Positions 1 through 45,511 of a stretch of 46,841 nucleotides of DNA are shown in pieces. The notes under the pieces are model-generated. The model saw nothing but the letters and a program-made list of their open reading frames with translations, did no database searches and was not told the origin of the DNA. Numbering within the stretch: the first letter of the stretch is position 1; each line of letters begins with the position of its first letter. Source of the DNA: a virus (Duplodnaviria > Heunggongvirae > Uroviricota > Caudoviricetes); IMG/VR virus record IMGVR_UViG_2648501797_000005, positions 1 to 46,841 of that record, one strand, 5' to 3'. The position numbers and the translations under genes were made by a program.

Positions 1-90
1 TCACTCTGCCAGATGGCGCAATGCCATCTGGTATCACTTAAAGGTATTAAAAACAACTTTTTGTCTTTTTACCTTCCCGTTTCGCTCAAG
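1..90. other. host chromosomal flank (bio/ybhB side of lambda attB); perfect inverted repeat CCAGATGGC-gcaat-GCCATCTGG at 9..31
   Basis: Sequence to the left of the att core (CGCTCAAG read on the + strand, i.e. the B' arm, continuing CGAAACGGGAAGG on the other strand) matches my recollection of the E. coli side of attB-lambda; no phage-like coding. Confidence 0.55.
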
Positions 91-105
91 TTAGTATAAA
101 AAAGC
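91..105. other. att core (common O region) of the P-O-B' junction (attR in lambda convention)
   Basis: TTAGTATAAAAAAGC = reverse complement of lambda core GCTTTTTTATACTAA; flanked by B'-type sequence on the left and P-arm-type sequence on the right. Confidence 0.8.
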
Positions 106-250
106 TGAACGCGAAACAGCAAAAGCCAATAATATCAATGTGTTAAAATACATTTAGTCTAAAAAATAGACTGCATGATACTACAAAACACAACATATCC
201 AGTCACTATGAATCAACCACTTAGATGGTATTAGTGACCTGTAACAGAGC
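106..250. other. attP P arm (Int arm-type / IHF / Xis binding region), diverged from lambda near the core
   Basis: 186..248 is the reverse complement of lambda P-arm sequence CTGTTACAGGTCACTAATACCATCTAAGTAGTTGATTCATAGTGACTGGATATGTTGTGTTTT (from memory); 106..185 is AT-rich and only partly lambda-like. Confidence 0.6.
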
Positions 251-292
251 ATTAGCGCAAGGTGATTTTTTGTCTTCTTGCGCTAATTTTTT
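251..292 (+). terminator. sib/tI-like hairpin plus T-run just beyond the P arm
   Basis: ATTAGCGCAAG...CTTGCGCTAAT stem followed by TTTTTT on the + strand; position equals lambda sib relative to att. Confidence 0.45.
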
Positions 293-405
293 GTCAATGC
301 ACTGGGTTAGTTGAATTTACAACCATGCTCAGTATCTCGATAAGCGCAGGTAGATGATGCAGTGGTGGGCTGATTACATCGATGGTCGTGCAGGAGTGTA
401 AGCCA

Positions 406-1437
406 TTACGCGAATTCTTCCACGATCGCCATGCCAGTAGCACCATCACCACCGGTAAATGCCGTACCGGTAAACCCAAGGTCATACGCGCCACCACCAC
501 CGGATCCGGGAGCTGCGCCAGCAATACCGGCCTGAGAACCCGCCCGACCACCGCCGCCAAAATACGACGCCCCGCCGTTGCCCGTCAGAAGGCTTGAGCC
601 TGTCTGTCCATCTGAGCCGGTACCACCGTTGATCCTGATATCTCCGGTCGCCGCCGTACCTCCGGCGCCGCCGGCGGTATTGGACACGCCTGACTTCACG
701 CCGCCTTTCCCGCCAGGAGCTGAGAACAGGCTGGCAAACGAGGTAGCACCACCATCCGCACCACTTACTGCGCCAACTCCGCCCTTACCACCCTTTCCGA
801 CAGTAATCGCGTAAGAACTGGCAGCAGACAGGTCAACCCATACGATAATGGTCGCGCCCGCGCCGCCGCCAGCACCGGAGAAGGTTTCTGTATTGTTGGA
901 GGCCTGGCAGCCGCCACCGCCGCCACCGGCACCGGTCAACGTTACTTTTGCATAACGGGCCAGAGGAGATCGCGTATAGGTTCCGTTTGCATAGAAAGCT
1001 TTTGGAGCGCCAAGTGAACGCCCGACAAAACCAGAGGAATCAGATATTCCGAGGTTATAACGGGCTTCATTTATCGCATCCTCACCGGCATCTTTAATTT
1101 CTGACAGGTTATTGCTGATCTGCAGGAACGACAACAATGATCCGGCGGTCATTAAATTCGCGACAATGTCATTCGTTGACCATACGCGTGCCGTAGTTCC
1201 TTCCTGACCACGAATTACTGTCATCACGTCACCGGATACAGACGTGACGTGCATAATTTCAGAAATTGTTTTCGTGGCCGCGTCGGTTATCGTTAATTTG
1301 AAATAACTCTGCCCAGATACAGGGGACGGGAATAAAGACCCCGCTCCAGTACCCACGGTAATAACGGTAGCGGACGCGCTAATACCAGCAGCGAGAACAC
1401 TCTTTGCGTTATTATTGGCTAATAGCTTCAGCGCCAT
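406..1437 (-). CDS. tail fibre protein, glycine-rich C-terminal region, N-terminal domain shared with the 2918..5380 fibre
   Basis: 343-aa ORF; N-terminus MALKLLANNNAKS...SYFKLTITDAAT parallels MALTLLATNNAES...SYFKLTLTDAAT of the larger fibre; long Gly-rich stretches. Confidence 0.6.
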   Translation of the reverse strand: MALKLLANNNAKSVLAAGISASATVITVGTGAGSLFPSPVSGQSYFKLTITDAATKTISEIMHVTSVSGDVMTVIRGQEGTTARVWSTNDIVANLMTAGSLLSFLQISNNLSEIKDAGEDAINEARYNLGISDSSGFVGRSLGAPKAFYANGTYTRSPLARYAKVTLTGAGGGGGGCQASNNTETFSGAGGGAGATIIVWVDLSAASSYAITVGKGGKGGVGAVSGADGGATSFASLFSAPGGKGGVKSGVSNTAGGAGGTAATGDIRINGGTGSDGQTGSSLLTGNGGASYFGGGGRAGSQAGIAGAAPGSGGGGAYDLGFTGTAFTGGDGATGMAIVEEFA

Positions 1438-1448
1438 ATATACCCCAG

Positions 1449-1766
1449 TTAAATAATAGAATTATCGGAACGAACATCGCAGATAGTAAACGTCACGACG
1501 CCGATGACAGTAACATCGTCCAGGGCTTCGCCCTCGATCGCTTCACCATCTTCAGTAATCAGTGACTTTCCTCTCAGCGTGGCAAGCTCCGTCCCGCCGC
1601 CGTGCTGTATAAGTAGTTGGCTACCCTGCTTTGGCTTCAGGGAGATATCCAGTACAACGTAACCACCAGATCGCTCGAAAACTAGCGTGTTTGGGCCGAC
1701 ATTGCAGATCGAGTTAACAGACAACCTTTGCTCAACGTAGTCCGTCGCTGGTGAAGGGAATCCCAT
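1449..1766 (-). CDS. hypothetical protein (105 aa), second gene downstream of the LexA box
   Basis: ATG at 1766 overlaps the TAA of the upstream gene; GGAGGG Shine-Dalgarno; no family recognised. Confidence 0.45.
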   Translation of the reverse strand: MGFPSPATDYVEQRLSVNSICNVGPNTLVFERSGGYVVLDISLKPKQGSQLLIQHGGGTELATLRGKSLITEDGEAIEGEALDDVTVIGVVTFTICDVRSDNSII

Positions 1767-2005
1767 TAGATCACCCTCCCCATGTTGGCCATCATCCACA
1801 AACGGTTTTCGCTATGGTCGGTGGTTTTGTCGACAAAGTACGTCTGCTCTCTAGATATCCACGCATTAGCCTCTGCGTCGGTAAAGTGCAGCCCAAGCCG
1901 GCGCAGCGCTGACACAAAATCCTTTGTGTGCAGGTACTGGTAGCCTTTGGAGTTGCGCAATACCGACTCGCGGAAAGCCGCGGCGATGTCTGACTGTCGA
2001 AGCAT
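1766..2005 (-). CDS. hypothetical protein (79 aa), first gene downstream of the LexA box
   Basis: ORF with GGAGGG Shine-Dalgarno 7 nt upstream of ATG 2005; no family recognised. Confidence 0.5.
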   Translation of the reverse strand: MLRQSDIAAAFRESVLRNSKGYQYLHTKDFVSALRRLGLHFTDAEANAWISREQTYFVDKTTDHSENRLWMMANMGRVI

Positions 2006-2023
2006 GATCTGCCCTCCGATAAA

Positions 2024-2043
2024 TACTGTTTTTATATACAGTA
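2024..2043. promoter_or_regulatory. LexA (SOS) box overlapping a putative promoter for the 2005->406 gene set
   Basis: TACTGTTTTTATATACAGTA fits the CTGT-N8-ACAG consensus with perfect palindromic arms; sits in the 107-bp gap upstream of the minus-strand 79-aa gene. Confidence 0.6.
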
Positions 2044-2112
2044 GTTTTAAGTGAGCGGCAGATCAATGCTGGTTGTGGCTATCAATCCCTGCGTCAGTAG
2101 CAAACTATTGTT

Positions 2113-2916
2113 TTAGCTATAGCGCCCATTAACCAGGTTGATGTCATCTGAAAGAATCTCTAAGGCATTTTTACTTGTTAGCGTCAGGTCATCTAGTCGA
2201 CAGCGATACACTCCACCATTCACCGAGAGTGATGTCGTTGTTATTTCAGCATCCCCCAGCCGCGCCAGAGTAATTGCTGCCGGATAAGCAACAATCGCTG
2301 AGAATGAGCTCTCATACTTCAGTACGCTATCAAGGTAGAGGCGCGATTTCTGCATTGTCCCATCAGAAGAAACTACGCGCTCAACAGCAACCTGGTGGAC
2401 ATTCCCATCAAAAAGCCCTGACAGGAATGAGTACGCATTAATCACCTCTCCGTGGTTAATCACCTGCAATGCGCTCGCGGCAGTTGTTGAAGAGAATGTC
2501 GGGCGCAGCCAAAACAGCGTGTTCGCTGCGTTACTGGGTGTGCCATTTGTCAGAGCCACCAGGAATGAGTTGGAAGTAGCAGCAGCAGCACCTGTTACTT
2601 TCAGCCAGAACGTATACAGATAATTTGTCATCCCTGATGTGGCAATCATTGATGCCGGGAGATTAATTCCCTGCGCATGAACTGAGTTCAGTTCGTACCC
2701 ATTACCAGCTGCTGTCAGATCAGAGTTAGCTGTCGCGTTGTCGTCGACATAGCACATGTTTTTGATTTGCGCACCAGCAACGAGGTCTGCCCCAGCGCCA
2801 GACCATGTGTTATGGAATGAAATTAACCCCTTCGTCCCACTATTAATCGAGCCATCACGATAAAGAATATCGCCAGTTGCGACAATTACACCATTTCGTT
2901 TCTCAAACGGACCCAT
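2113..2916 (-). CDS. hypothetical tail-fibre-associated protein (267 aa)
   Basis: Starts immediately after the stop of the 820-aa fibre; Ser/Thr/Asn/Gly-rich. Confidence 0.45.
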   Translation of the reverse strand: MGPFEKRNGVIVATGDILYRDGSINSGTKGLISFHNTWSGAGADLVAGAQIKNMCYVDDNATANSDLTAAGNGYELNSVHAQGINLPASMIATSGMTNYLYTFWLKVTGAAAATSNSFLVALTNGTPSNAANTLFWLRPTFSSTTAASALQVINHGEVINAYSFLSGLFDGNVHQVAVERVVSSDGTMQKSRLYLDSVLKYESSFSAIVAYPAAITLARLGDAEITTTSLSVNGGVYRCRLDDLTLTSKNALEILSDDINLVNGRYS

Positions 2917-2917
2917 T

Positions 2918-5380
2918 TTACACCCACCCTAATAATTGAAATTTCTGGTAAATAAATTCAGCGTTTACGTCCGCGCCAGCCTGCAATGCATATTCAGGGG
3001 CGTTAGATGTTTCTTTCGATTGGCTAGGATGCAGTCCGTCATACTTCAATGAAGTTGGAGGGATATCATTTCCAAAGTCAGAAACGTCCTGAGAATATGC
3101 TGGATTATAGTTGTTTACGAAGTTTTCCCTCATATCAACACTATCAATTTCGCACCATAACTCAGGGTATTTCTTTTTAATCATGCTGTTTGATAACATG
3201 ACGTTTGCATAACCTGCTGATCCACGGGGCTCAACACTGCTGTTAAAATCAGGCAGGATAATAACCTTCTGCCCAAGAGATTTAAGGTATTCAACTACAC
3301 CAATAGTGTCGCTGAGAACCTGCATTGACTGGCTAATATTATTCCTTCCCATCCAGAAAATATTTATACATTCAGGGTGAAGAGGGAAAGATGTTCCTGC
3401 CGGAATTCCTCCGGTAATAGCACCAGTGGTCACCGGATCGCAAATGAATGGCACGGCAACAGGCACGTTAACCGCATCACCAGATGCATCACGGGTGAAT
3501 GTGGCATTGGTTCCATCCCATGAAAAATTGCCTGGAATGCCAGCCAGAGAACCGTGGAACGGCGTCGATGCTGCGGCGTTGGCAAAATAACTCAGTGGCC
3601 CCGGGTTTGCCGGAGAAAGAGTTACCGAACCGCTGGCAGGAATGCTGCCGCCAACTGGAACGTAATACGCTCTGCGCCCACCCTGAGCAGCAGCTGTGCC
3701 AACGCTTGTGCGTGAGCTTTTGCCAAAGTTATAGGCCGTGTAGCCGGTTAGCTCCTGCAGGCGTGTCAGCATACGGGGGTTATCAACCATTGAATGGCCC
3801 CACCCGCAAATGATCGGCCTGGCCATTACAGAGTGCTCAGTCAGATCATTGATATAGCAATAATACTGCCCACCCGGTGCGCGATTAGTCTCCCTGTCCG
3901 ATTGCCAGATAACCTTATCATCATCAACGCGTGGCAAGGTTTCATTACTGGATGTATTGGTTACACGAACCTGCTGACCTGTATCCCGATCAAACAGGAA
4001 AACCTGCTCATAGCCTCCTTTCTCTTCGCTAAATGCAATGTAATCAGGCTGACCTGAATTTGTCAGGTCCGATGATTTCAGCGACTCGATAACAACCAGG
4101 TTTTCAGATGTGGATGCCGAAATGTATCCACTATCTGCATACTCATCAGGTGAGAGAAACGTTACTGACTCTGGAAGAGGTGATAATGCGTCAGTAACAC
4201 CCTTTATCTCTGTAAAATCGCTTCCTTCAATTACAGCGTCATCAACGACAATTTTGCTAAAATAAATGGTGGTGCCTTTAATGCCAACAATAATTCTATT
4301 GTTTTCAGAAAAAGTTGCTGAGTCATACCCTGAATCCGAAAATTCAGATATATCGACAAAAGTCGAAGCCTGTAAAAAAGGAACGATTCCAAGAAGGCTT
4401 TGCCCAGAAATCAAAATATCATTTCCTGAAAGGATTTCAGCAGAAAATTCATCTGCGCTGATTTCCCCTGTTTTGATTTTTTGGAAGAACCACTCAACAC
4501 CTTTCCTGGATAGTAATATTTTTTTATTTTCATCTAGTATAGCCTCTTCCACCCCAGAATCTTTATATTCATCAGAAGAAAAGAATTCTGATGCCTGTGT
4601 TATATTTAACAAAGGGGAGTAAGGAGCAATTGATTCATCTACATACTTCTTAGATGGAATTTTCAGACCAGTGGGTTCAAGAGTGCCACTATTGTTAATT
4701 ACTTCAATAGCCAGTGCGCTGTCATCCGGGCTACGGTAAAATGCAGTAGCACCAGACAGAATATTGCCAGCATCGGCGTCGGCCTGTGCCGCCTCCAGCG
4801 TCGAAAATTCGCGGATGGTATTAGTTATAGACCCCTGTCCAGGGTACTCAGCAACCTCTTGTGCTACGCCTGAGTTATTTTTGTAATAACGGAAAGCAAG
4901 GACATTTCCTGTCCCCTGGGGAACGCGGAAGTATTGCCCGCTCGTCGTCGCTGCAAGGCCAGCCGCCGTATCAGCAAAGGTTGATTTATTGTCACCAAAC
5001 TCCGACGCGCTAAGTGCATATCCCTGTGCCTCTTCCGCTGAATCAGATGCCTGTTTTGCAAAATCAGCAATCACATTCAGCGTGTCAGCGGTCATCATGT
5101 TGGCAACCATGTCGTTGGCCGCCCACGCACGCGCCAGCGTTCCTTCTTGCGCACGTTCAATCGTGAAGATGTCCCCAGCCTTGGCTGTCACGTTCACGAT
5201 CTCAACCTGTGAGCCGGTGGCGGCATCGGTGAGAGTGAGCTTAAAATAGCTCTCGCCTGCCACAGCATCAGGGAACTCGGCACCAGTTCCTGCGCTAACG
5301 ATCAGCGACGTGTCGGTTGCGCTGATAGCAGAAGCCAGCGTGCTTTCTGCGTTGTTTGTAGCCAAAAGGGTTAGTGCCAT
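2918..5380 (-). CDS. tail fibre / tailspike protein (820 aa), possible esterase-like C-terminal domain
   Basis: GGAGGA Shine-Dalgarno before ATG 5380 (the 827-aa track ORF starts 7 codons earlier); shared N-terminal anchor with the other fibre; C-terminal DGLHPS resembles the SGNH block V motif (inference only). Confidence 0.65.
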   Translation of the reverse strand: MALTLLATNNAESTLASAISATDTSLIVSAGTGAEFPDAVAGESYFKLTLTDAATGSQVEIVNVTAKAGDIFTIERAQEGTLARAWAANDMVANMMTADTLNVIADFAKQASDSAEEAQGYALSASEFGDNKSTFADTAAGLAATTSGQYFRVPQGTGNVLAFRYYKNNSGVAQEVAEYPGQGSITNTIREFSTLEAAQADADAGNILSGATAFYRSPDDSALAIEVINNSGTLEPTGLKIPSKKYVDESIAPYSPLLNITQASEFFSSDEYKDSGVEEAILDENKKILLSRKGVEWFFQKIKTGEISADEFSAEILSGNDILISGQSLLGIVPFLQASTFVDISEFSDSGYDSATFSENNRIIVGIKGTTIYFSKIVVDDAVIEGSDFTEIKGVTDALSPLPESVTFLSPDEYADSGYISASTSENLVVIESLKSSDLTNSGQPDYIAFSEEKGGYEQVFLFDRDTGQQVRVTNTSSNETLPRVDDDKVIWQSDRETNRAPGGQYYCYINDLTEHSVMARPIICGWGHSMVDNPRMLTRLQELTGYTAYNFGKSSRTSVGTAAAQGGRRAYYVPVGGSIPASGSVTLSPANPGPLSYFANAAASTPFHGSLAGIPGNFSWDGTNATFTRDASGDAVNVPVAVPFICDPVTTGAITGGIPAGTSFPLHPECINIFWMGRNNISQSMQVLSDTIGVVEYLKSLGQKVIILPDFNSSVEPRGSAGYANVMLSNSMIKKKYPELWCEIDSVDMRENFVNNYNPAYSQDVSDFGNDIPPTSLKYDGLHPSQSKETSNAPEYALQAGADVNAEFIYQKFQLLGWV

Positions 5381-5403
5381 GTATCCTCCGGGATTAGGCA
5401 ATA

Positions 5404-5427
5404 AAAAAACCGCAAGCGCGGCCTTTT
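5404..5427 (-). terminator. short hairpin with 7-T run between baseplate genes and the fibre gene (weak, could act on either strand)
   Basis: CCGC-aagc-GCGG stem flanked by A7 and CCTTTT on the + strand. Confidence 0.25.
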
Positions 5428-5441
5428 AAATGGTGAATATT

Positions 5442-5708
5442 ATGAATAATGCTTCTATTGCTATTTTAAAAATACTTTTAGGAACGCTATCTACTTTATT
5501 AATACTCCTTTCTTGCGCCTTGCTTACTATTTTATTTGGATTTCTTTTTCAGCAAGGAATGCCGCCAATAGATATGATAAAAATGTCATCCATTTTGTTT
5601 TTATCAATAGTTGTGCTGCATATAATTTGTCAGTGCGTTAAATCTCATTTGTATATAACAATAGATAATCGAGATAAAAACCTAGTCAAATATCTCAACC
5701 GTGACTGA
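5442..5708 (+). CDS. small two-TM membrane protein encoded on the opposite strand in an AT-rich island
   Basis: ORF in strongly AT-rich DNA; GGTGA before ATG 5442 (ORF opens at 5430); two hydrophobic segments; 27-nt convergent overlap with the 5682..6386 gene. Confidence 0.4.
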   Translation: MNNASIAILKILLGTLSTLLILLSCALLTILFGFLFQQGMPPIDMIKMSSILFLSIVVLHIICQCVKSHLYITIDNRDKNLVKYLNRD

Positions 5709-6386
5709 CTGGTAAAACGGCATGTGCAGCAGGCCGCTATCCATGGCCTGCTTGAAGAAAATGGCGAACTCGAAATCCTCGGTGATCACAAAAGCCGTAT
5801 CCTTCTGGTTGTACTTCCTGGAGTTATAGGCCGATGCGTTATAGATAGCGCTCCGTGTGAACTGCCTCCGCCCCTTATAGATGGAAATCACGATACCGCC
5901 ATCCACAAACTGGATCGATATACTCCACCGCTGGTCGTTGAGGATGTCTGTGCCATTCACTCCCAACAGGAACCGCAGAATCCGCCGCTTTATCCATGGG
6001 ATAGAGAAATAGAAGCCGTCACCTTTGTAAAAATTCCAGGTCATGATCCGCTTAAAAAGGTCATCGGAGACAACAACCTGGTTAGACTGGTCAATCACCC
6101 GGTACTCATTGAATGCCAGTTGGTTAAATTCGAAAGTGTTATATGGGCCTATCTCCTGCTGTTCGCTGCTGGAAATCACCGGCGGCAACACGCCATAAAT
6201 GCCATGGGCAATCCATCGGAGCTGATCTCCGGTGTTGTAGTCACCGATGAAAATCGGCAGGTTGGCATTAACCATCCAGTCATAAATGCCCTGCGCCATC
6301 GAGTTATACGCAGTAAAAAACGCCCGCAGATTGTCATCGTCGTTGTATTGCGTATACATATACGACCGGATGATATCGTCCAGCAT
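5682..6386 (-). CDS. tail/baseplate protein (234 aa)
   Basis: Position between baseplate-like genes and fibre; size and order only. Confidence 0.45.
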   Translation of the reverse strand: MLDDIIRSYMYTQYNDDDNLRAFFTAYNSMAQGIYDWMVNANLPIFIGDYNTGDQLRWIAHGIYGVLPPVISSSEQQEIGPYNTFEFNQLAFNEYRVIDQSNQVVVSDDLFKRIMTWNFYKGDGFYFSIPWIKRRILRFLLGVNGTDILNDQRWSISIQFVDGGIVISIYKGRRQFTRSAIYNASAYNSRKYNQKDTAFVITEDFEFAIFFKQAMDSGLLHMPFYQSVTVEIFD

Positions 6387-6387
6387 G

Positions 6388-7806
6388 CTACGCCCCTGTT
6401 ACGATCACGCCATCCGACGCGATATAAAAATAACTGAACTTATCGCCGCTGATGATATTCGTCCCGGCATCCGGTGGCGTTATCACACCATTGACGGTGA
6501 CCACGACGTTTAGAGTGCTGATCAGCCCCATGTCGATTGTCGAGTTAATCGCCTGCAAGAATGCGTCTTTCAGGTTGTTAACGTTCAGCGGTTTCCCGGC
6601 GAATATGCCATTCACATACTGAATCGTAGGCGCCGAGACCAGAGAGGCGACCGTGGCATCAGTCAGGTAGTTAACACTTTCGGTCCCCCACTGATACGTC
6701 ACTGTGACCCGCTGCAGCAATGGTGTCACGAACGGGATCACGTAGTTATCAGGCCAGTCATTCACCGTCACGGTATTGTTTCTGACGTTCGGCGTCACCT
6801 CGCCGCCGCCTCCCCAGGTCCCGGATGAAGTGGTGTCAATTCCGATGGAAAAAGTGTGAGGAGACAGTACCGTCACGGTCAGAGGAACGTCATTAATGCC
6901 TGTCATCCCGGTAACGCCAGTGATCCGGATAACCTGGCCATCAGTGTAACCATGAGTCAGGTCTGTGCTGACGACGCCAGGATTTGCATTCGTGATCCCA
7001 GTTACATTCAGTGAACACCCTTTCAGCCGGCTGATATCCCCCGCAGACTTATAGAGCGCGCCAGCAATATCGTAAATATCACCGCCGGCGCACATGACTA
7101 TCCACTTATCCCCGTCCTGAATGACAGAAACCAGGCGCGCCTGCACGTTATCAAGGCTGGTGAGATATTGCCGGATAAATCCAGGATATCCCTGAACGGT
7201 AGCCATCTGCGCCTGCCATACGCGATCACGAAACTGATAGTTCGTTTCCGGATCAGCACCCGGAGTGCCGGCGATCGGGTTGGTGCAGGTGATGGTGACG
7301 TCAGACGGTAGACTGGATATGATCTGGTTAACCGTATTTACTGGCACCGCCCAGGTCCCGGTCTCCGTTCCCTCGCATGATACGCTGGCAGACACTCCAG
7401 ACGACGAGATAATCGTCGCATCACTGACTGAATAGGTATAGGTCCCATCAGAAACAATAAACCCCTGTGGGATAACAAATCCCGCCGGGCCGGAAAACTG
7501 AACCGGTACTGTTGTTGTGCCAGCCGTTTTCTGCCCAGGGATACCAGCCTGCTGTGCAAGAAGCTCCAGCATGGCCAGGTTAGCCTTTAGCGGCCCCACC
7601 GAGTTAATCAGGTCAACCCTCGCCTGATCGCAGACGATAAGTGCGCCGACATCAGTGCTGGCCACGTCTTCAATCAGAGAGCCAGGCAAATCAGTTGTGA
7701 GTCCCGGAGATAGCGCAATGGCCTGGGAAACGAGCTGTGCTCGTAGCTCTTCCGCCGTCAGAGGAACCGGGCCCGCTGACGTATAGCTGACTGGTAAATC
7801 GCTCAT
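6388..7806 (-). CDS. baseplate protein (472 aa), possibly baseplate-J-like
   Basis: Translationally coupled (4-nt overlap) within the tail gene run; size and order only. Confidence 0.4.
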   Translation of the reverse strand: MSDLPVSYTSAGPVPLTAEELRAQLVSQAIALSPGLTTDLPGSLIEDVASTDVGALIVCDQARVDLINSVGPLKANLAMLELLAQQAGIPGQKTAGTTTVPVQFSGPAGFVIPQGFIVSDGTYTYSVSDATIISSSGVSASVSCEGTETGTWAVPVNTVNQIISSLPSDVTITCTNPIAGTPGADPETNYQFRDRVWQAQMATVQGYPGFIRQYLTSLDNVQARLVSVIQDGDKWIVMCAGGDIYDIAGALYKSAGDISRLKGCSLNVTGITNANPGVVSTDLTHGYTDGQVIRITGVTGMTGINDVPLTVTVLSPHTFSIGIDTTSSGTWGGGGEVTPNVRNNTVTVNDWPDNYVIPFVTPLLQRVTVTYQWGTESVNYLTDATVASLVSAPTIQYVNGIFAGKPLNVNNLKDAFLQAINSTIDMGLISTLNVVVTVNGVITPPDAGTNIISGDKFSYFYIASDGVIVTGA

Positions 7807-10157: not shown

Positions 10158-10864
10158 GGCCCTACCCCCAACTTACCCAATAGGCCGGTTATTGCTTCCG
10201 ATACAGAGCTCCCGAGAGGCGTGTTGCCAAGAGCATTGGCGGTATTAGTCCAGGATGGGTCGGTTACCATATCCCCGGCGCCAATCTTGTTTAAAAAATT
10301 GTTCACGGCCTGCTCTGCACCATTATCGGTTATCAGTGGCTGCTCGAAATCCCATATCCATGAACGCTGTGGTAATGGATCGTTACCAGAGGTAATGTCC
10401 CTCACTACACGCAAAATGCAGTTGCTATAGATAACGGATGGGGTGGCGACGATAAACGTGCCGCCTAAGTTAGAATGCGCCTGAAGGACAGACTGCAAAG
10501 CACTCATAGTGACTAGCTTTGTCATCGCCCCGGTGTTTTCATTGACCGGGGCCTCCATTACCAACGAAACGCGCAAAGGCTGAGCAAGCAAGGCGTTCGC
10601 AGCTACTACCTGGTTGGCGAAAGGGTATCTGGCAATTTCATAATCAACCATTGTGGCGCCCTGAACCGGGCGCCAGTGGCAGAAATATTTATCCAGATCG
10701 GTTAGGTTTATGGCTCCTCCAAGCAGCCCCGTAACAAAGCTCGCGCTCTGCGTCAAAGCGACGATCGGGAGCATTCCTCCAGGAATGGCCTGCGCTATCC
10801 CTCCGCAAAGTATTACTGGGGATATTTCAAAACCCAGCTTATACATTTCACGTGTGAATCCCAT
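10154..10864 (-). CDS. tail protein (236 aa)
   Basis: Order and coupling only. Confidence 0.4.
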   Translation of the reverse strand: MGFTREMYKLGFEISPVILCGGIAQAIPGGMLPIVALTQSASFVTGLLGGAINLTDLDKYFCHWRPVQGATMVDYEIARYPFANQVVAANALLAQPLRVSLVMEAPVNENTGAMTKLVTMSALQSVLQAHSNLGGTFIVATPSVIYSNCILRVVRDITSGNDPLPQRSWIWDFEQPLITDNGAEQAVNNFLNKIGAGDMVTDPSWTNTANALGNTPLGSSVSEAITGLLGKLGVGP

Positions 10865-12681
10865 TACCTCGCCCCCAATTGCGCTGAAGTTACCACTGCA
10901 TTCCCACCGGTATTGTTATAGATCTGAATGACTGTGCTCTCAGAAACTCTGCTACCAGCCCCTTCTTTTTGAGATATAGCAGAAATGAGTTTCGCGATAA
11001 CCTGAGGATCATTGAGATTCAGTTTCTGATTCTCATTAAATCCAGTAGTTTTAACCACATGCCGAATATACTCAGCGGTATTATTTTCCTTAGGAGGAGC
11101 CCATTTTCTTGCAATATCTCCTACCGTATTTATTCCTTTAGCGCCATACATTTGAAGTTGCTTTGTCGCCGCCAGTACGCCTTCATCCAGCGTTGGGAAG
11201 ACGGCAAATTTACCGCTTCTCGTATTCTCGCTGCTATATCCTTCAGCCCACCGCAGATTTCCCGGATTATTAAATCGATCTGCAATAGTCCTGTTTCTGT
11301 CGGAAGTATTTGCAGGTGTGGGATCAACAGCTTTAACGGTTCCATCTTCAAAGAAGCGCCTAACACCCTTGAGCCAGCCCCATACATGCGGGTCATCATT
11401 GCTTCCAGGAGTATAGGATTTTCCCGTTTTCGGATCGATGATGGTGCTTGGGCTCAACATCGTTGACCCGGATGATATATCCGCAGTAGAGATACTCGCT
11501 TTCCCTGTTACCCAATCAATAACCTTGCCAATTAGATTTCCCATTTTCTCTACTTTGTCCATAAAGTTGCTTACATCTGTGGAAAATTCAGGAGAAGCGA
11601 GGTAATTACCGAATCGCTCAATGCCGCCGGCCAGCGCATCAATCCACTTGCCGAGTTCGGGTGATTTCAGAACGGTATCGATCGCGCCTGACAGCGCATC
11701 AGACAGCTTGCTCAGTTGCGGCGTGAGTGGCCCAAGGCCGCGCACAAACGTGTTCCTGATGCTCTGGCTGCTGTAGTCGAGTTGGACGTTAAAATCCTGC
11801 CACTGGCGCGCCTGCTGGTCGGTAATTTGCAACATACGCGCATCCTGCTGCGCGCGCTTCTCCATGGCGGTGATCTCTTCATCGCTCATGTTTTTGAAGC
11901 GGTTCAGGTCGTCCAGTGTAAAGAAGTTTGTCAGGCCGTGCGCCTGTGCGCCCTGCAGCGTGCTGCCGTTCTGCACGAAGATATCGCGCGCATTACGGAT
12001 CATCTGCGGGAGCAGTTTGGCCGGGTCCTGGTCGGGGTTGTTAATCCCCATCGCCTGAAACGTCCAGCGCTTCGACAGGTCCATTTGCGAATCGCGGATA
12101 GCGCCCAGCGTACCCGCCGGATTACCCAGCGCTTTCTGGTAGTTTATGGCGGTGGAATCAAGTGCGCCGATGCTCGTCCCGAGCCCGAGAGAGGTAAACC
12201 GCTGGGCGCCGGTGGTGGCCGCCAGCCGGTTGATGCCAAACAGGCCGCCAACGCCCAGGACGCCGGTAAATATCCCGACAATACCACCCCAGGACAGAAG
12301 GCTGGCCGTCGCTTCCTTGATATGCCCTGCCAGCGATTTAGCGTCTTTCGTCGCATCGCTGAGGAAGCCCTTCGCAGATCGGGTGCTTTTGTTGAATTCG
12401 TCCTGCTTTTTCTTCGAGTCTTCCAGGTTGGTATTGAGCCGATCGATACCGCTGTTGATGGTCAGAATGGCCTCGGCCACGGCATTAAACTCCGCGCCTA
12501 ACTCCTTCGCCTCACCTTTGGCCTTTTCGGTCTGCTTGCTGCTTTCTCCAATACCAACGGCAGCTACCCGCCATGCTTCCGGTAAATCATCCAGCGCGCT
12601 CTGGTACTCGCGAAACCTTTCCATAAACGCGACAAACTTGTCGTCATTTACGTCAATGTCAACGATCGACTTAGCTACCAT
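10864..12681 (-). CDS. tail tape measure protein
   Basis: Coiled-coil N-terminal half followed by Gly-rich hydrophobic segment (SWGGIVGIFTGVLGVGGLFGI) typical of tape measure proteins; start taken at in-frame ATG 12681 with AGAGG Shine-Dalgarno (track ORF opens at 12747). Confidence 0.55.
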   Translation of the reverse strand: MVAKSIVDIDVNDDKFVAFMERFREYQSALDDLPEAWRVAAVGIGESSKQTEKAKGEAKELGAEFNAVAEAILTINSGIDRLNTNLEDSKKKQDEFNKSTRSAKGFLSDATKDAKSLAGHIKEATASLLSWGGIVGIFTGVLGVGGLFGINRLAATTGAQRFTSLGLGTSIGALDSTAINYQKALGNPAGTLGAIRDSQMDLSKRWTFQAMGINNPDQDPAKLLPQMIRNARDIFVQNGSTLQGAQAHGLTNFFTLDDLNRFKNMSDEEITAMEKRAQQDARMLQITDQQARQWQDFNVQLDYSSQSIRNTFVRGLGPLTPQLSKLSDALSGAIDTVLKSPELGKWIDALAGGIERFGNYLASPEFSTDVSNFMDKVEKMGNLIGKVIDWVTGKASISTADISSGSTMLSPSTIIDPKTGKSYTPGSNDDPHVWGWLKGVRRFFEDGTVKAVDPTPANTSDRNRTIADRFNNPGNLRWAEGYSSENTRSGKFAVFPTLDEGVLAATKQLQMYGAKGINTVGDIARKWAPPKENNTAEYIRHVVKTTGFNENQKLNLNDPQVIAKLISAISQKEGAGSRVSESTVIQIYNNTGGNAVVTSAQLGAR

Positions 12682-12804
12682 TGAAGAAACCTCTTTCTTT
12701 GAGCGCGGCGAGAAGGTAGCGCTGCCGGTACTGCGCCGGGCTGGCATACTCCTCGCCGGTGATCTCCCTTATCACCTGCCAGAAGCCCTCATTAGACGCC
12801 CAGT

Positions 12805-44156: not shown

Positions 44157-44375
44157 ATGTACTTAACACTTCAGGAGTGGAACGCACGCCAGCGACGTCC
44201 AAGAAGCCTTGAAACAGTTCGTCGATGGGTACGCGAGTGCAGGATATTCCCTCCTCCGGTTAAGGATGGAAGAGAGTATCTGTTCCACGAATCAGCGGTA
44301 AAGGTTGACTTAAATCGACCAGTAACAGGTAGCCTTTTGAAGAGGATCAGAAATGGGAAGAAGGCGAATTCATGA
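44157..44375 (+). CDS. xis: excisionase
   Basis: 72 aa, matches lambda Xis as recalled. Confidence 0.9.
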   Translation: MYLTLQEWNARQRRPRSLETVRRWVRECRIFPPPVKDGREYLFHESAVKVDLNRPVTGSLLKRIRNGKKANS

Positions 44376-45423
44376 GCGCCGGGATTTACCCCCTAACCTT
44401 TATATAAGAAACAATGGATATTACTGCTACAGGGACCCAAGGACGGGTAAAGAGTTTGGATTAGGCCGAGACAGGCGAATCGCAATCACTGAAGCTATAC
44501 AGGCCAACATTGAGTTATTTTCAGGACACAAACACAAGCCTCTGACAGCGAGAATCAACAGTGATAATTCCGTTACGTTACATTCATGGCTTGATCGCTA
44601 CGAAAAAATCCTGGCCAGCAGAGGAATCAAGCAGAAGACACTCATAAATTACATGAGCAAAATTAAAGCAATAAGGAGGGGTCTGCCTGATGCTCCACTT
44701 GAAGACATCACCACAAAAGAAATTGCGGCAATGCTCAATGGATACATAGACGAGGGCAAGGCGGCGTCAGCCAAGTTAATCAGATCAACACTGAGCGATG
44801 CATTCCGAGAGGCAATAGCTGAAGGCCATATAACAACAAACCCGGTCGCTGCCACTCGCGCAGCAAAATCAGAGGTAAGGAGATCAAGACTTACGGCTGA
44901 CGAATACCTGAAAATTTATCAAGCAGCAGAATCATCACCATGTTGGTTAAGACTTGCAATGGAACTGGCTGTTGTTACCGGGCAACGAGTTGGTGATTTA
45001 TGCGAAATGAAGTGGTCTGATATCGTAGATGGATATCTTTATGTCGAGCAAAGCAAAACAGGAGTAAAAATTGCCATCCCAACAGCATTGCATGTTGATG
45101 TTCTCGGAATATCAATGAAGGAAACACTTGATAAATGCAAAAAGATTCTTGGCGGAGAAACCATAATTGCATCTACTCGTCGTGAACCGCTTTCATCCGG
45201 CACAGTATCAAGGTATTTTATGCGCGCACGAAAAGCATCAGGTCTTTCCTTCGAAGGGGATCCGCCAACCTTTCACGAGTTGCGCAGTTTGTCTGCAAGA
45301 CTCTATGAGAAGCAGATAAGCGATAAATTTGCTCAACATCTTCTCGGGCATAAGTCGGACACCATGGCATCACAGTATCGTGATGACAGAGGCAGGGAGT
45401 GGGACAAAATTGAAATCAAATAA
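44353..45423 (+). CDS. int: integrase (tyrosine recombinase)
   Basis: 356 aa, near-identical to lambda Int as recalled; overlaps xis 3' end as in lambda. Confidence 0.95.
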   Translation: MGRRRIHERRDLPPNLYIRNNGYYCYRDPRTGKEFGLGRDRRIAITEAIQANIELFSGHKHKPLTARINSDNSVTLHSWLDRYEKILASRGIKQKTLINYMSKIKAIRRGLPDAPLEDITTKEIAAMLNGYIDEGKAASAKLIRSTLSDAFREAIAEGHITTNPVAATRAAKSEVRRSRLTADEYLKIYQAAESSPCWLRLAMELAVVTGQRVGDLCEMKWSDIVDGYLYVEQSKTGVKIAIPTALHVDVLGISMKETLDKCKKILGGETIIASTRREPLSSGTVSRYFMRARKASGLSFEGDPPTFHELRSLSARLYEKQISDKFAQHLLGHKSDTMASQYRDDRGREWDKIEIK

Positions 45424-45496: not shown

Positions 45497-45511
45497 TTAG
45501 TATAAAAAAGC
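45497..45511. other. att core of the B-O-P' junction (attL in lambda convention)
   Basis: TTAGTATAAAAAAGC followed by AGGCTTCAA (B arm of attB-lambda). Confidence 0.8.

Follow-up and report, generated by a model that had tools for sequence, protein, structure and literature searches.

Why should a prophage carry two tail fibre genes that begin alike and end differently, with a putatively DNA-damage-controlled cassette set between them? The window, by which we mean the whole stretch of 46,841 nucleotides that was analysed, holds a ~45-kb contractile-tail prophage of the Felixviridae type, integrated at the lambda attachment site; the att core at one end has its partner at 45497-45511, and the prophage therefore spans ~45.4 kb. 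The Felixviridae are a recently named group of gut-associated temperate phages of Klebsiella and Enterobacteriaceae, in which only the large protein has been flagged as a receptor-binding candidate (KlebPhaCol preprint). One candidate has been noted so far for this family, a point against our overall account, and here we describe two. The answer we favour, with moderate confidence, is that a baseplate tailspike and an accessory fibre, with paralogous anchors, are encoded on either side of an inserted SOS moron. The genes that frame the question are the following.

91..105, minus strand: attR, a lambda-type att core
406..1437, minus strand: fibre 2, a short fibre (343 aa) with no further gene between it and attR
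1135..1437, minus strand: anchor of fibre 2 (f2-type lineage)
2918..5380, minus strand: fibre 1, a large tailspike of 820 aa with a putative enzymatic domain, its ATG preceded by GGAGG
5078..5380, minus strand: anchor of fibre 1 (f1-type lineage)
5682..7806, minus strand: baseplate wedge pair, a Baseplate_J-like protein of 472 aa (6388-7806) and p234 (5682-6386)

Two related anchors and two unrelated tips

The first-pass annotation had proposed that the two fibres share closely parallel N-termini of about 100 residues and then diverge completely, and both halves of this proposal hold. Fibre 1 and fibre 2 align by BLASTP at 49% identity across 134 aa (E 6e-33), and their anchors (residues 1-101) align by tblastn at 57.4% identity without a gap (E about 1e-35). 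BLASTP yields no second significant alignment between the two proteins, which are unrelated past about residue 130, and tblastn detects no third copy of the anchor in the window. Neither gene is a pseudogene, both open reading frames being intact.

Both fibres match the same PHROGs (6427, 25419, 30299 and 8469), and both anchors are recognizably related to gp75 and gp76 of the Ralstonia podophage GP4 (BLASTP, 36-42% identity, E 1e-14 to 3e-19; 40-42% for the fibre 1 anchor). A profile of fibre 2 homologues likewise matches the structure of GP4 gp76, PDB 8jov (Zheng et al., 2023, J Mol Biol 435:168258), over residues 7-110 (E 2e-11). AlphaFold monomer models of anchor residues 1-86 and 1-130 gave pLDDT values below 50 and hence no confident model, which weighs against our overall account. 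The family takes in 10,022 representative proteins at E<=1e-3; among the best 150 of these matches, nearly all have the domain starting within the first few residues, a few have it from residue 17-25 and a single one has it inside the protein. Relatives of anchor-bearing fibres have exchanged their distal domains, and the f2-type anchor in particular is found fused to Gly-rich, Collar or gp53-like tips. As this family is very large, with no Pfam model and a single solved representative, it deserves a name.

Within it, the anchors of the window belong to two conserved lineages, with 57% identity between them and 85-100% within each (94-100% for the fibre 1 anchor among related prophages), and 18 positions are fixed inside each type and different between the two. 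The f1-type sits mostly on proteins of 470-1304 aa, with three shorter intermediates of 370-451 aa; the proteins that bear the f2-type are 188-446 aa long. Their sequences mark them as stable, separately conserved paralogous lineages. Beyond the anchors, the relevant features are these.

409..1005, minus strand: TNF-like plus glycine-rich (polyglycine-II type) distal domain of fibre 2
2113..2916, minus strand: p267, an accessory gene coupled to fibre 1, matching phrog_19357 only
2921..3832, minus strand: SGNH-fold esterase-like C-terminal domain of fibre 1 (residues 517-820), with key residues S530, G553, G678-R-N-N681, D781 and H784
4616..5020, minus strand: D2 module of fibre 1 (residues 121-255), also present in tailspikes with other N-termini

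Fibre 1, which has a full-length close homologue of the same 820 aa (P0121, 96%), can be parsed into the anchor (1-101), a helical neck (~100-135), the D2 module (121-255), which is a recombination junction, three ~70-aa repeats (256-445), TolB-like blades (446-516) and the SGNH-fold domain (517-820). Apart from the TolB-like blades, residues 100-516 have no Pfam or PDB sequence match. An esterase-like end of the SGNH type, marked by DGLHPS, had been suggested as a possibility, and it is upheld as a fold with conserved residues: the domain has the alpha/beta/alpha arrangement, DGLHPS is block V, and S530 (block I), G553 (II), N680 (III) and D781/H784 (V) occur in the right order, are invariant in 37 homologues and lie where this fold would place them, at the ends of strands or ahead of the last helix. 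Block I reads GHS rather than GDS. The Pfam families PF13472, PF00657 and PF03629 do not match the domain even at E 5, and in hhalign comparisons with PF13472-bearing relatives block V alone aligns (probability 57%); that the SGNH family sequence models miss this domain is a point against our overall account. The domain most likely strips O-acyl groups from capsule or O-antigen. The start of p267 is translationally coupled to the stop of fibre 1 (a TAA-A-ATG junction), and its product, with no Pfam or PDB match, co-occurs with this distal type of tailspike in two further loci (L022 and L064).

Fibre 2 likewise has a full-length close homologue of its own length (P0001, 95%, 343 aa, in a cluster of 797 members), and consists of the anchor (1-101), a helical neck (~88-128) and a TNF-like plus polyglycine domain (145-343). 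The glycine-rich end noted at first is confirmed by Pfam PF21722 (Gly_rich_2; residues 153-340, 52.5 bits against a cut-off of 24.3) and by a match of the tip to the fold of a solved Pam3-type fibre. Of the two receptor-binding proteins, one is a tailspike that is related to the spike of epsilon15 and probably acts as a deacetylase; the other is an adhesin resembling those of Pam3 and gp38.

The SOS cassette between the fibre genes

The cassette lies downstream of p267, and its elements are as follows.

1449..1766, minus strand: UmuD'/HumD-like protein of 105 aa (phrog_3469)
1766..2005, minus strand: p79, a small protein of 79 aa (phrog_3893), the first cassette gene
2043-2024, minus strand: LexA box TACTGTATATAAAAACAGTA, an exact box, 0.01 expected by chance
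2024..2066, minus strand: umuDC-type SOS promoter, -35 TTGATC (2066-2061), 17-nt spacer, -10 TACTGT inside the LexA box

This box (CTGT-N8-ACAG) is the sole full match in the window. An identical 20-bp box, with the same layout of -35, 17-nt spacer and -10, stands upstream of umuD in E. coli K-12. Across 13 aligned loci the -35 and the box are conserved, with similarity beginning at the -35 and varying flanks, and in most IMG/VR loci a LexA box lies upstream of p79 or humD. On this sequence evidence the cassette promoter is a copy of the E. coli umuDC promoter, and it is predicted to be LexA-repressed. The stop of p79 overlaps the ATG of the next gene (TAATG), and residues 2-40 of the protein encoded there align to residues 25-63 of K-12 UmuD (BLASTP, E 1e-10). 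Because it starts at the equivalent of UmuD Gly25 (GFPSPA.DYVEQR), it would be born pre-cleaved. Its best NCBIfam match is HumD (NF051876), at 48.4 bits below the cut-off of 120, as is PRK10276 at 29.7 bits below its cut-off of 110; Pfam reports no Peptidase_S24 match in it.

We propose that both fibre genes were once neighbours in a late operon, and that a self-contained SOS moron, an accessory unit dispensable for phage growth, comprising the umuDC-like promoter with its LexA box, p79 and the pre-cleaved UmuD'/HumD-like gene, was later inserted between them. With the moron between the former neighbours, fibre 2 should have two sources of transcript, late read-through and the LexA-controlled promoter. 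We found no terminator-like site between the cassette and fibre 2; late read-through is nevertheless only assumed, because a terminator-like hairpin lies immediately upstream of fibre 1. The initial placement of the second fibre in a LexA-linked operon was thus right in that the gene is downstream of a LexA-controlled promoter, but the link is not intrinsic: neither p79/humD nor an upstream accessory gene accompanies fibre 2 in every locus, and in 11 IMG/VR loci without the cassette fibre 2 directly follows the tailspike or its accessory gene, giving the order fibre 1, accessory gene, fibre 2.

Gene neighbourhoods and the probable docking of the fibres

In 12 species with a related J/p234 pair, an anchor-bearing fibre gene is found at most ~3.5 kb downstream of p234, within ~600 bp in nine of them and ~3 kb away in three Serratia loci. 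This proximity makes the J/p234 wedge the probable site at which the fibre 1 anchor docks, and fibre 1 would then be the primary, baseplate-attached tailspike. For the f2-type the picture is broader, with 19 of the 42 informative IMG/VR loci having such a fibre without this baseplate and without any f1-type anchor; the f2 anchor is therefore not solely dependent on J/p234. The same count weighs against our overall account. The backgrounds of f2-type fibres examined in detail are the Felix type, a wedge of J428 with a gp53-like protein, J398 with DUF2612, and one that has a protein of 1137 aa.

In the account we prefer, fibre 2 would be a short accessory fibre, its TNF-like/polyglycine tip being of the receptor-recognising, variable-loop type, and both fibres would be borne by the same virion at different docking sites. 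This would permit a two-step or dual recognition, in which glycan processing comes first and a second receptor is bound next.

The spread of the f2-type also bears on a rather unlikely reading in which the Gly-rich fibre, in many cases together with the SOS cassette, is a portable, baseplate-independent receptor-binding module that docks on a shared partner (e.g., the tailspike) or is supplied in trans. Such a module would remain under purifying selection as it moves among prophages of Klebsiella, E. coli and Raoultella whose tails are of at least three or four unrelated types, and in its in-trans form the fibre would be made from the host-type LexA promoter and given to co-induced phages in polylysogens.

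In every background examined in detail the f2-type fibre is directly downstream of a large tailspike, most of these tailspikes match D2 fully or partially, and in one locus (L022) the tailspike matches fibre 1 at 96-99% identity from residue 255 on and is followed by p267, the cassette and fibre 2, even as its N-terminus and baseplate differ. Of the 19 non-Felix loci, moreover, 17 have an intact fibre 2, and purifying selection acts on the alleles that were compared (~3-9 synonymous to one nonsynonymous codon change). One could imagine from this that fibre 2 rides on the tailspike or another common partner, the tailspike-distal part, accessory gene and fibre 2 forming a portable branched module of which only the tailspike N-terminus is swapped to suit each baseplate. 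Phages of Klebsiella and E. coli are well known to build such branched receptor-binding complexes, and T4 gp10-like branching domains are mentioned in this connection. However, Pfam and PDB sequence searches detected no T4 gp10-like or other branching domain in fibre 1, and the supposed partners do not co-vary: identical f2 anchors pair with D2 modules just 49-57% identical, two loci have D2-bearing tailspikes without any fibre 2 (L007 and L008), and three have fibre 2 without a detectable D2. The near-identical alleles across backgrounds may instead reflect frequent recent recombination, and we hold a branched module to be unlikely.

The first-pass annotation had read the shared N-terminus as attachment to the same baseplate site. 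In that case the two fibres would compete for it, giving mixed or alternative virions in a ratio set by expression, e.g., through SOS induction. The clear homology of the anchors is in keeping with this, as are the more distant baseplate relatives, whose single fibre has an anchor 60-68% similar to both and about equally so, fitting the duplication of one docking module; the separate LexA-controlled promoter before fibre 2 could shift the ratio. Yet the divergence of the two lineages, with its fixed type-specific positions and different size classes, speaks against a single site, because proteins fitting one surface would not be expected to diverge in this way. The f2-type without this baseplate and the 11 loci without the SOS cassette tell against it too, and by analogy GP4, with two paralogous-anchor genes, has a virion with several fibre types. 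A single shared site is thus not borne out, and we consider it decidedly improbable.

Finally, fibre 2 might be cargo of the SOS cassette without function in this virion, serving co-resident phages or a non-virion role. It is the last gene before attR, a typical moron position; the promoter ahead of it is of the host SOS type, not a late promoter of the phage; and the block of p79, the humD-like gene and fibre 2 is common to prophages of unrelated tail types; in one pair (L003 and L004) the block includes the att arm, and the fibre 2 protein is 100% identical with 9 synonymous site differences. Against this, it begins with a domain that genuinely belongs to virion fibres, its tip has a receptor-binding fold of fibres, and tips are swapped among its relatives as in functional receptor-binding proteins. 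It is also present in all 23 Felix-type loci recovered via its anchor and in RothC, RothD and Chronis, related phages that formed plaques when isolated. Given also its purifying selection and its independence of the cassette in the 11 loci, we regard a cargo role as very improbable. A switch of the Mu Gin/S-S' or P1 Cin type, and with it the switchable specificity first suggested, finds no support: positions 1-6500 contain no inverted repeats longer than 21 nt, none bracketing fibre segments and no inversion system, and both genes are complete and co-oriented.

Overall, the window shows a commonplace pairing of two receptor-binding proteins, to which some new detail is added, and it does not overturn current understanding. 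Knowing two receptor-binding proteins of Felixviridae should help host-range prediction and engineering. The spread of the same short fibre over unrelated tail modules, beside a copy of a host umuDC promoter, is a modest lead that bears on how accessory receptor-binding proteins travel and on their timing.

Comparison with known systems

The nearest relatives, Chronis among them, have the baseplate genes of the window (98-99.8% at the amino acid level), both anchor types and the same gene order of fibre 1, accessory gene(s), (cassette), fibre 2 and att/integrase region; the distal parts of both fibres differ from those of the window, and in Chronis p79 is missing and the humD-like gene is truncated.

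GP4, which has three fibre types, parallels the paired anchors most closely: gp75 and gp76 are encoded by adjacent fibre genes with the same N-terminal domain family (47% identity) and different distal parts, and the virion structure 8jov contains 18 chains of gp76. In contrast to the window, GP4 is a virulent podophage whose fibres sit on the tail adaptor or nozzle rather than on the baseplate of a contractile tail; it carries no SOS cassette, and the distal domains of its fibres are not related to those of the window.

The SGNH-fold domain of fibre 1 has a clear homologue in the C-terminal domain of the epsilon15 tailspike (PDB 9sij to 9sin, for which we found no publication; profile E 1e-97), with which it shares the GHS, GRN and DxLHPS motifs. 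The spike body of Salmonella phage epsilon15 is an endorhamnosidase. At least one close relative has the epsilon15-type domain after an annotated beta-helix repeat, whereas in fibre 1 it is preceded by the repeats and TolB-like blades. The SGNH-esterase type of fibre or spike represented by gp63.1 of E. coli phage G7C (PDB 4qnl) has no Pfam or hhalign match to fibre 1 beyond block V, and differs from it in the GDS of block I.

The tip of fibre 2 is of the type seen in gp24 of cyanophage Pam3 (PDB 7ypx/7yfw) and, by extension, in T-even gp38 and the 'tail wing brush' gp33 of mycobacteriophage Bxb1; in the Pam3 fibre and the gp38 adhesins this tip recognises receptors via variable loops (PMC9608196). 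Pam3 gp24, however, docks by an alpha-helical N-terminus in place of the GP4-type anchor and needs the downstream chaperone gp25 (PMC9608196). No chaperone gene directly follows fibre 2, since the att site comes next, after a lambda-type sib/tI hairpin (int transcript terminator plus RNase III site); this difference from Pam3-type fibres is another point against our overall account.

The cassette, finally, departs from umuDC downstream of the shared promoter: an extra 79-aa gene separates the promoter from the humD-like gene, and a fibre gene rather than umuC comes next. P1 HumD is a pre-cleaved UmuD' analogue, and the protein of the window is shorter, at 105 aa, and lacks the GDSM catalytic-serine segment. 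A shared anchor with different tips is normal modular phage design; the putatively DNA-damage-controlled cassette between the two genes is the twist.

Two tail fibres with a common anchor

The two tail fibres of the window, an 820-aa tailspike (fibre 1) and a 343-aa short fibre (fibre 2), align with 49% identity across 134 residues (E 6e-33), and their residues 1-101, here termed the anchor, are 57.4% identical without gaps, which bears out the parallel N-termini of about 100 residues seen in the first-pass annotation. Its description of the distal parts as unrelated also holds: there is no further significant alignment between the two proteins, and a third anchor copy is absent from the window. 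Both fibres are full length against close homologues, and the fibre 1 ATG sits after GGAGG, giving 820 aa from that start. The fibres, the accessory gene p267 and the cassette genes all lie on the minus strand.

Features of the fibre region and of the distal att site
406-1437, minus strand: fibre 2
1449-1766, minus strand: UmuD'/HumD-like gene, 105 aa, its ATG overlapping the p79 stop
1766-2005, minus strand: p79, first cassette gene
2113-2916, minus strand: p267
2918-5380, minus strand: fibre 1
5682-7806, minus strand: J-like gene and p234, the baseplate wedge pair
44353-45423: ORF of 356 aa adjoining the second att core

A Pfam search recovered no family for the anchor; both fibres match the same PHROG tail-fibre families. 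With phmmer, 1.84 billion representative proteins yielded 10,022 anchor matches at E<=1e-3, of which 2,726 reach E<=1e-10, with the anchor at the extreme N-terminus in nearly all of the best 150 of the 10,022 matches. Some homologous proteins (P0242, P0260, P0114, P0266, P0294, P0331, P0336 and P0357) contain 2-3 anchor-matching stretches per chain, possibly tandem copies. A profile of fibre 2 homologues matches PDB 8jov, an 18-chain entry labeled 'putative tail fiber protein' (E 2e-11), whose chain tblastn identified as gp76 of the Ralstonia podophage GP4. Literature searches by the PDB codes 8JOV and 9SIM/9SIJ returned no useful paper.

The window is a prophage, in which the lambda att core GCTTTTTTATACTAA occurs twice, at 91-105 and 45497-45511. 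The bases beyond 91 we take, by eye, to be the bio-side arm of lambda attB, consistent with the match of transducing lambda records to window bases 1-296; at the position equivalent to that of the 356-aa ORF, a related locus has a 356-aa ORF that we likewise took by eye to resemble lambda Int. A strong hairpin with a T-run at 244-294 (plus strand; dG -24.2, z -5.2) is presumably the lambda sib/tI element adjoining the att arm, where int transcripts of the circularized phage would stop, antisense to the fibre 2 end. Among the tail genes are those for a sheath, for a tape measure that carries a transglycosylase domain, for a baseplate hub and for a Baseplate_J-like protein; the virion hence has a contractile tail. 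Neighboring ORFs match only PHROGs of unknown function. The tape-measure-like protein (627 aa; 10864-12747, minus strand) has its lytic transglycosylase/endolysin-like domain at the C-terminus (PHROG matches, residues 475-615). The Baseplate_J-like protein (6388-7806, minus strand) has an inserted domain (residues 275-338) matching the ubiquitin-activating enzyme E1 FCCH domain (PF16190, E 4e-14), after which PGAP names the whole protein. Relatives of this prophage were recently assigned to the new family Felixviridae (preprint 10.1101/2024.12.02.626457).

Anchor lineages and the baseplate

Related loci were fetched with p234, the gene directly upstream of fibre 1, taking one genome per species. 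All 12 of these loci, spanning Raoultella and Kluyvera to Commensalibacter and a Saccharibacteria bin, have the order J-like gene, p234, anchor-bearing fibre gene, with p234 and the fibre gene no more than ~600 bp apart in nine and ~3 kb apart in three Serratia loci. This co-inheritance supports the proposal that the anchor docks on the J-like/p234 wedge. Among the p234 loci, two anchor-bearing genes are confined to the close Klebsiella/Raoultella/E. coli group; more distant relatives have one, about equally similar to both types.

These types emerge from the division of 240 anchor homologues into two lineages. The f1-type anchors, with a median of 100% identity to fibre 1, are mostly on 470-1304-aa proteins, three intermediate ones being on proteins of 370-451 aa; the f2-type anchors, whose median identity to fibre 2 is 90%, are on 188-446-aa proteins. 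An f1-type and an f2-type anchor are ~57% identical to each other. When 32 distinct f1-type and 72 distinct f2-type anchors were compared, 52 positions were conserved and identical across both types, and 18 were conserved within each type yet different between them. The two lineages may thus be specialized for different docking contexts, which weakens the earlier proposal that both fibres attach to the same baseplate site. Docking of the fibre 2 anchor on D2 of the tailspike (fibre 1 residues 121-255) was tested by co-variation, and none was found.

Distal domains of the two fibres

Relatives of fibre 1 are 90-97% identical over the first 250 residues, and their distal parts are many and different, several bearing Pfam SGNH/GDSL or sialate O-acetylesterase domains. 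Mosaic assembly fits the fibre 1 gene, given that GC shifts along it (anchor 0.57, D2 0.50, middle 0.40, C-terminal part 0.48). Residues 256-445 (4046-4615, minus strand) form three significant ~70-aa repeats that share the motif E[YF]xDSG...EN (E 1e-5 to 1e-10 between pairs), in a region of GC 0.40 whose structure model is not confident; weak TolB-like beta-propeller blades come after them.

Residues 517-820, for which the AlphaFold model is reasonable in an overall poor prediction (mean pLDDT 57), match PDB 9sij/9sim, 'tail spike protein' (E 1e-97), traced by tblastn to the C-terminal part of the tailspike from Salmonella phage epsilon15. Across 37 homologues, S530, G553, G678-R-N-N681, D781 and H784 do not vary. 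Curated sequence models gave no match to residues 517-820, and hhalign comparison of the C-terminal profile with the Pfam SGNH/SASA-bearing relatives aligned block V only, or nothing. In agreement with the SGNH-esterase-like end originally suggested for this fibre, we conclude that residues 517-820 form an SGNH-fold domain that is probably an active esterase, and, by analogy with known esterase tailspikes, the obvious guess for its substrate would be an O-acetyl group of a surface glycan. The C-terminal 300 aa of the epsilon15 tailspike (PDB 9sij-9sin) carries the same SGNH-like motifs; because of these, and because the O-antigen of the epsilon15 host is O-acetylated, a second, deacetylating activity of that spike seems possible, on which we found no paper.

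Downstream of fibre 1, p267 is translationally coupled to it and co-travels with its particular distal type. Upstream, an opposite-strand 92-aa ORF (5430-5708, plus strand; GC 0.30), apparently with two hydrophobic helices as judged by eye, lies between the baseplate genes and fibre 1, in a slot occupied by three tiny ORFs in the related phage RothC and by a different gene in Chronis. Pfam, NCBIfam and PDB searches gave no match for p267, p79, p234 or this 92-aa membrane protein. A terminator-like hairpin with a U-run lies just upstream of fibre 1 (~5396-5428, minus strand; dG -11.6, z -2.6), and so antitermination or a promoter of its own may be required for fibre 1 to be reached by late transcription.

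The glycine-rich end reported for fibre 2 corresponds to a match of residues 153-340 to Pfam Gly_rich_2, and the structure model is confident for residues 145-343. In relatives the f2-type anchor is joined to a C-terminal domain of Gly-rich, Collar or gp53-like kind, and such swapping of tips is the usual signature of a receptor-binding protein. In the cyanophage Pam3, a unit of this type, TNF-like plus glycine-rich and related to the gp38 adhesin of phage S16 is the receptor-recognizing part and needs a downstream chaperone (PMC9608196); in contrast, no gene lies downstream of fibre 2. Neither p79 nor the HumD-like protein was retained as a candidate chaperone, each being found without the other.

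An SOS cassette between the fibres and the portability of the short fibre

The 107-bp gap after p267 contains TACTGTATATAAAAACAGTA at 2024-2043. The cassette -35 element, TTGATC, lies 17 nt upstream of TACTGT, which opens the LexA box; the region upstream of E. coli K-12 umuDC has an identical box in the same layout, with further upstream similarity to the cassette. Across 13 aligned loci conservation starts at the -35 element, and CTGT-N8-ACAG is kept with a variable spacer. The promoter of the cassette (cassette 1449-2066, minus strand), a close copy of the umuDC promoter/operator, scores 8/12 on consensus and was recognized only by this homology; consensus promoter and terminator scans gave no result above chance. 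It drives p79, of 79 aa, and a UmuD'-like protein that is both shortened and pre-cleaved, umuC being absent. The latter, the 105-aa protein, begins where cleaved UmuD does, at the residue corresponding to Gly25, and its best NCBIfam match, below cut-off, is the phage P1 HumD family. Some cassette variants have two or three CTGT-N8-ACAG boxes (L051, L062, L063, L070, ~9118, 9585, 9678; L066, 9589, 9682), with a more divergent humD-like gene (54-62% identity) and p79 absent. A p79 leader fold (z -3.8) sequestering the ribosome-binding site was dropped, its long stem not being conserved in relatives.

Fibre 2 starts 11 nt after the 105-aa gene, behind a GGGG motif. The terminator scan found no terminator-like site between the cassette genes and fibre 2, and the first-pass annotation was therefore right to place fibre 2 in a LexA-linked operon, though the link is not intrinsic to this fibre. 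The p79 and humD-like pair is common in Klebsiella prophages of several kinds, at their distal end, and other Klebsiella prophages end in it without having fibre 2; in 11 IMG/VR loci without the cassette, the tailspike or its accessory gene is followed directly by fibre 2. Insertion of a moron between two neighboring fibre genes is the simplest history.

Fifty IMG/VR loci were fetched via the f2-type anchor, 42 with enough upstream sequence to judge. Of these, 23 have a Felix-type baseplate and an f1-type fibre; the other 19 have neither, their place being taken by a different Baseplate_J plus gp53-like wedge, by a baseplate of the DUF2612 type or by a 1137-aa protein. An intact fibre 2 is present in 17 of these 19, and among the 343-aa alleles compared synonymous codon changes outnumber nonsynonymous ones ~3-9:1 in Felix-type and other loci alike. 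In one locus, L022, both the baseplate and the N-terminus of the tailspike are different, and this tailspike shares 96-99% identity with fibre 1 over the part from residue 255 to its end; p267, the cassette and fibre 2 come after it. This arrangement indicates that the distal block moves as a unit, with the tailspike N-terminus exchanged near D2. L003 (OZ035751, 'Lambdavirus PDP110P1') and L004 (OZ035745, 'Wanchaivirus PDP110P2') have an identical att-proximal block of p79, humD-like gene and fibre 2, adjoined in L003 by a lambda Int-like ORF. A further Gly-rich fibre, of 431 aa and with a different N-terminus, is L003's own; the 'Lambdavirus' label of L003 looks questionable, since its tail genes are Baseplate_J-type.

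Of the dual or switchable specificity initially proposed, the dual form is plausible and the switchable form unsupported: a search of 1-6500 for inverted repeats able to flip fibre segments found none, which speaks against an invertible-segment or recombinational switch, and at the DNA level the anchors of the two fibres are too diverged for ready recombination. What is said here on incorporation into virions, on docking sites, on enzyme activity and on regulation is inferred. Worth retaining are what the anchor family is and its precedent in GP4, the relationship between the C-terminal domain of fibre 1 and the epsilon15 tailspike, the SOS cassette derived from umuDC and inserted between the fibres, and the unexpected portability of the short fibre among tails of unrelated type.

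The adsorption apparatus with its two receptor-binding proteins is a normal, modular one of a known kind, of which a newly named phage family now has a more detailed description. In GP4 a second fibre gene, gp75, adjoins gp76 and has the same anchor domain (47% identity to gp76, 36-42% to the anchors of the window); according to citing papers, GP4 has three kinds of tail fibres. GP4, for which a virion structure has been solved, thus provides a precedent for neighboring fibre genes with paralogous anchors.
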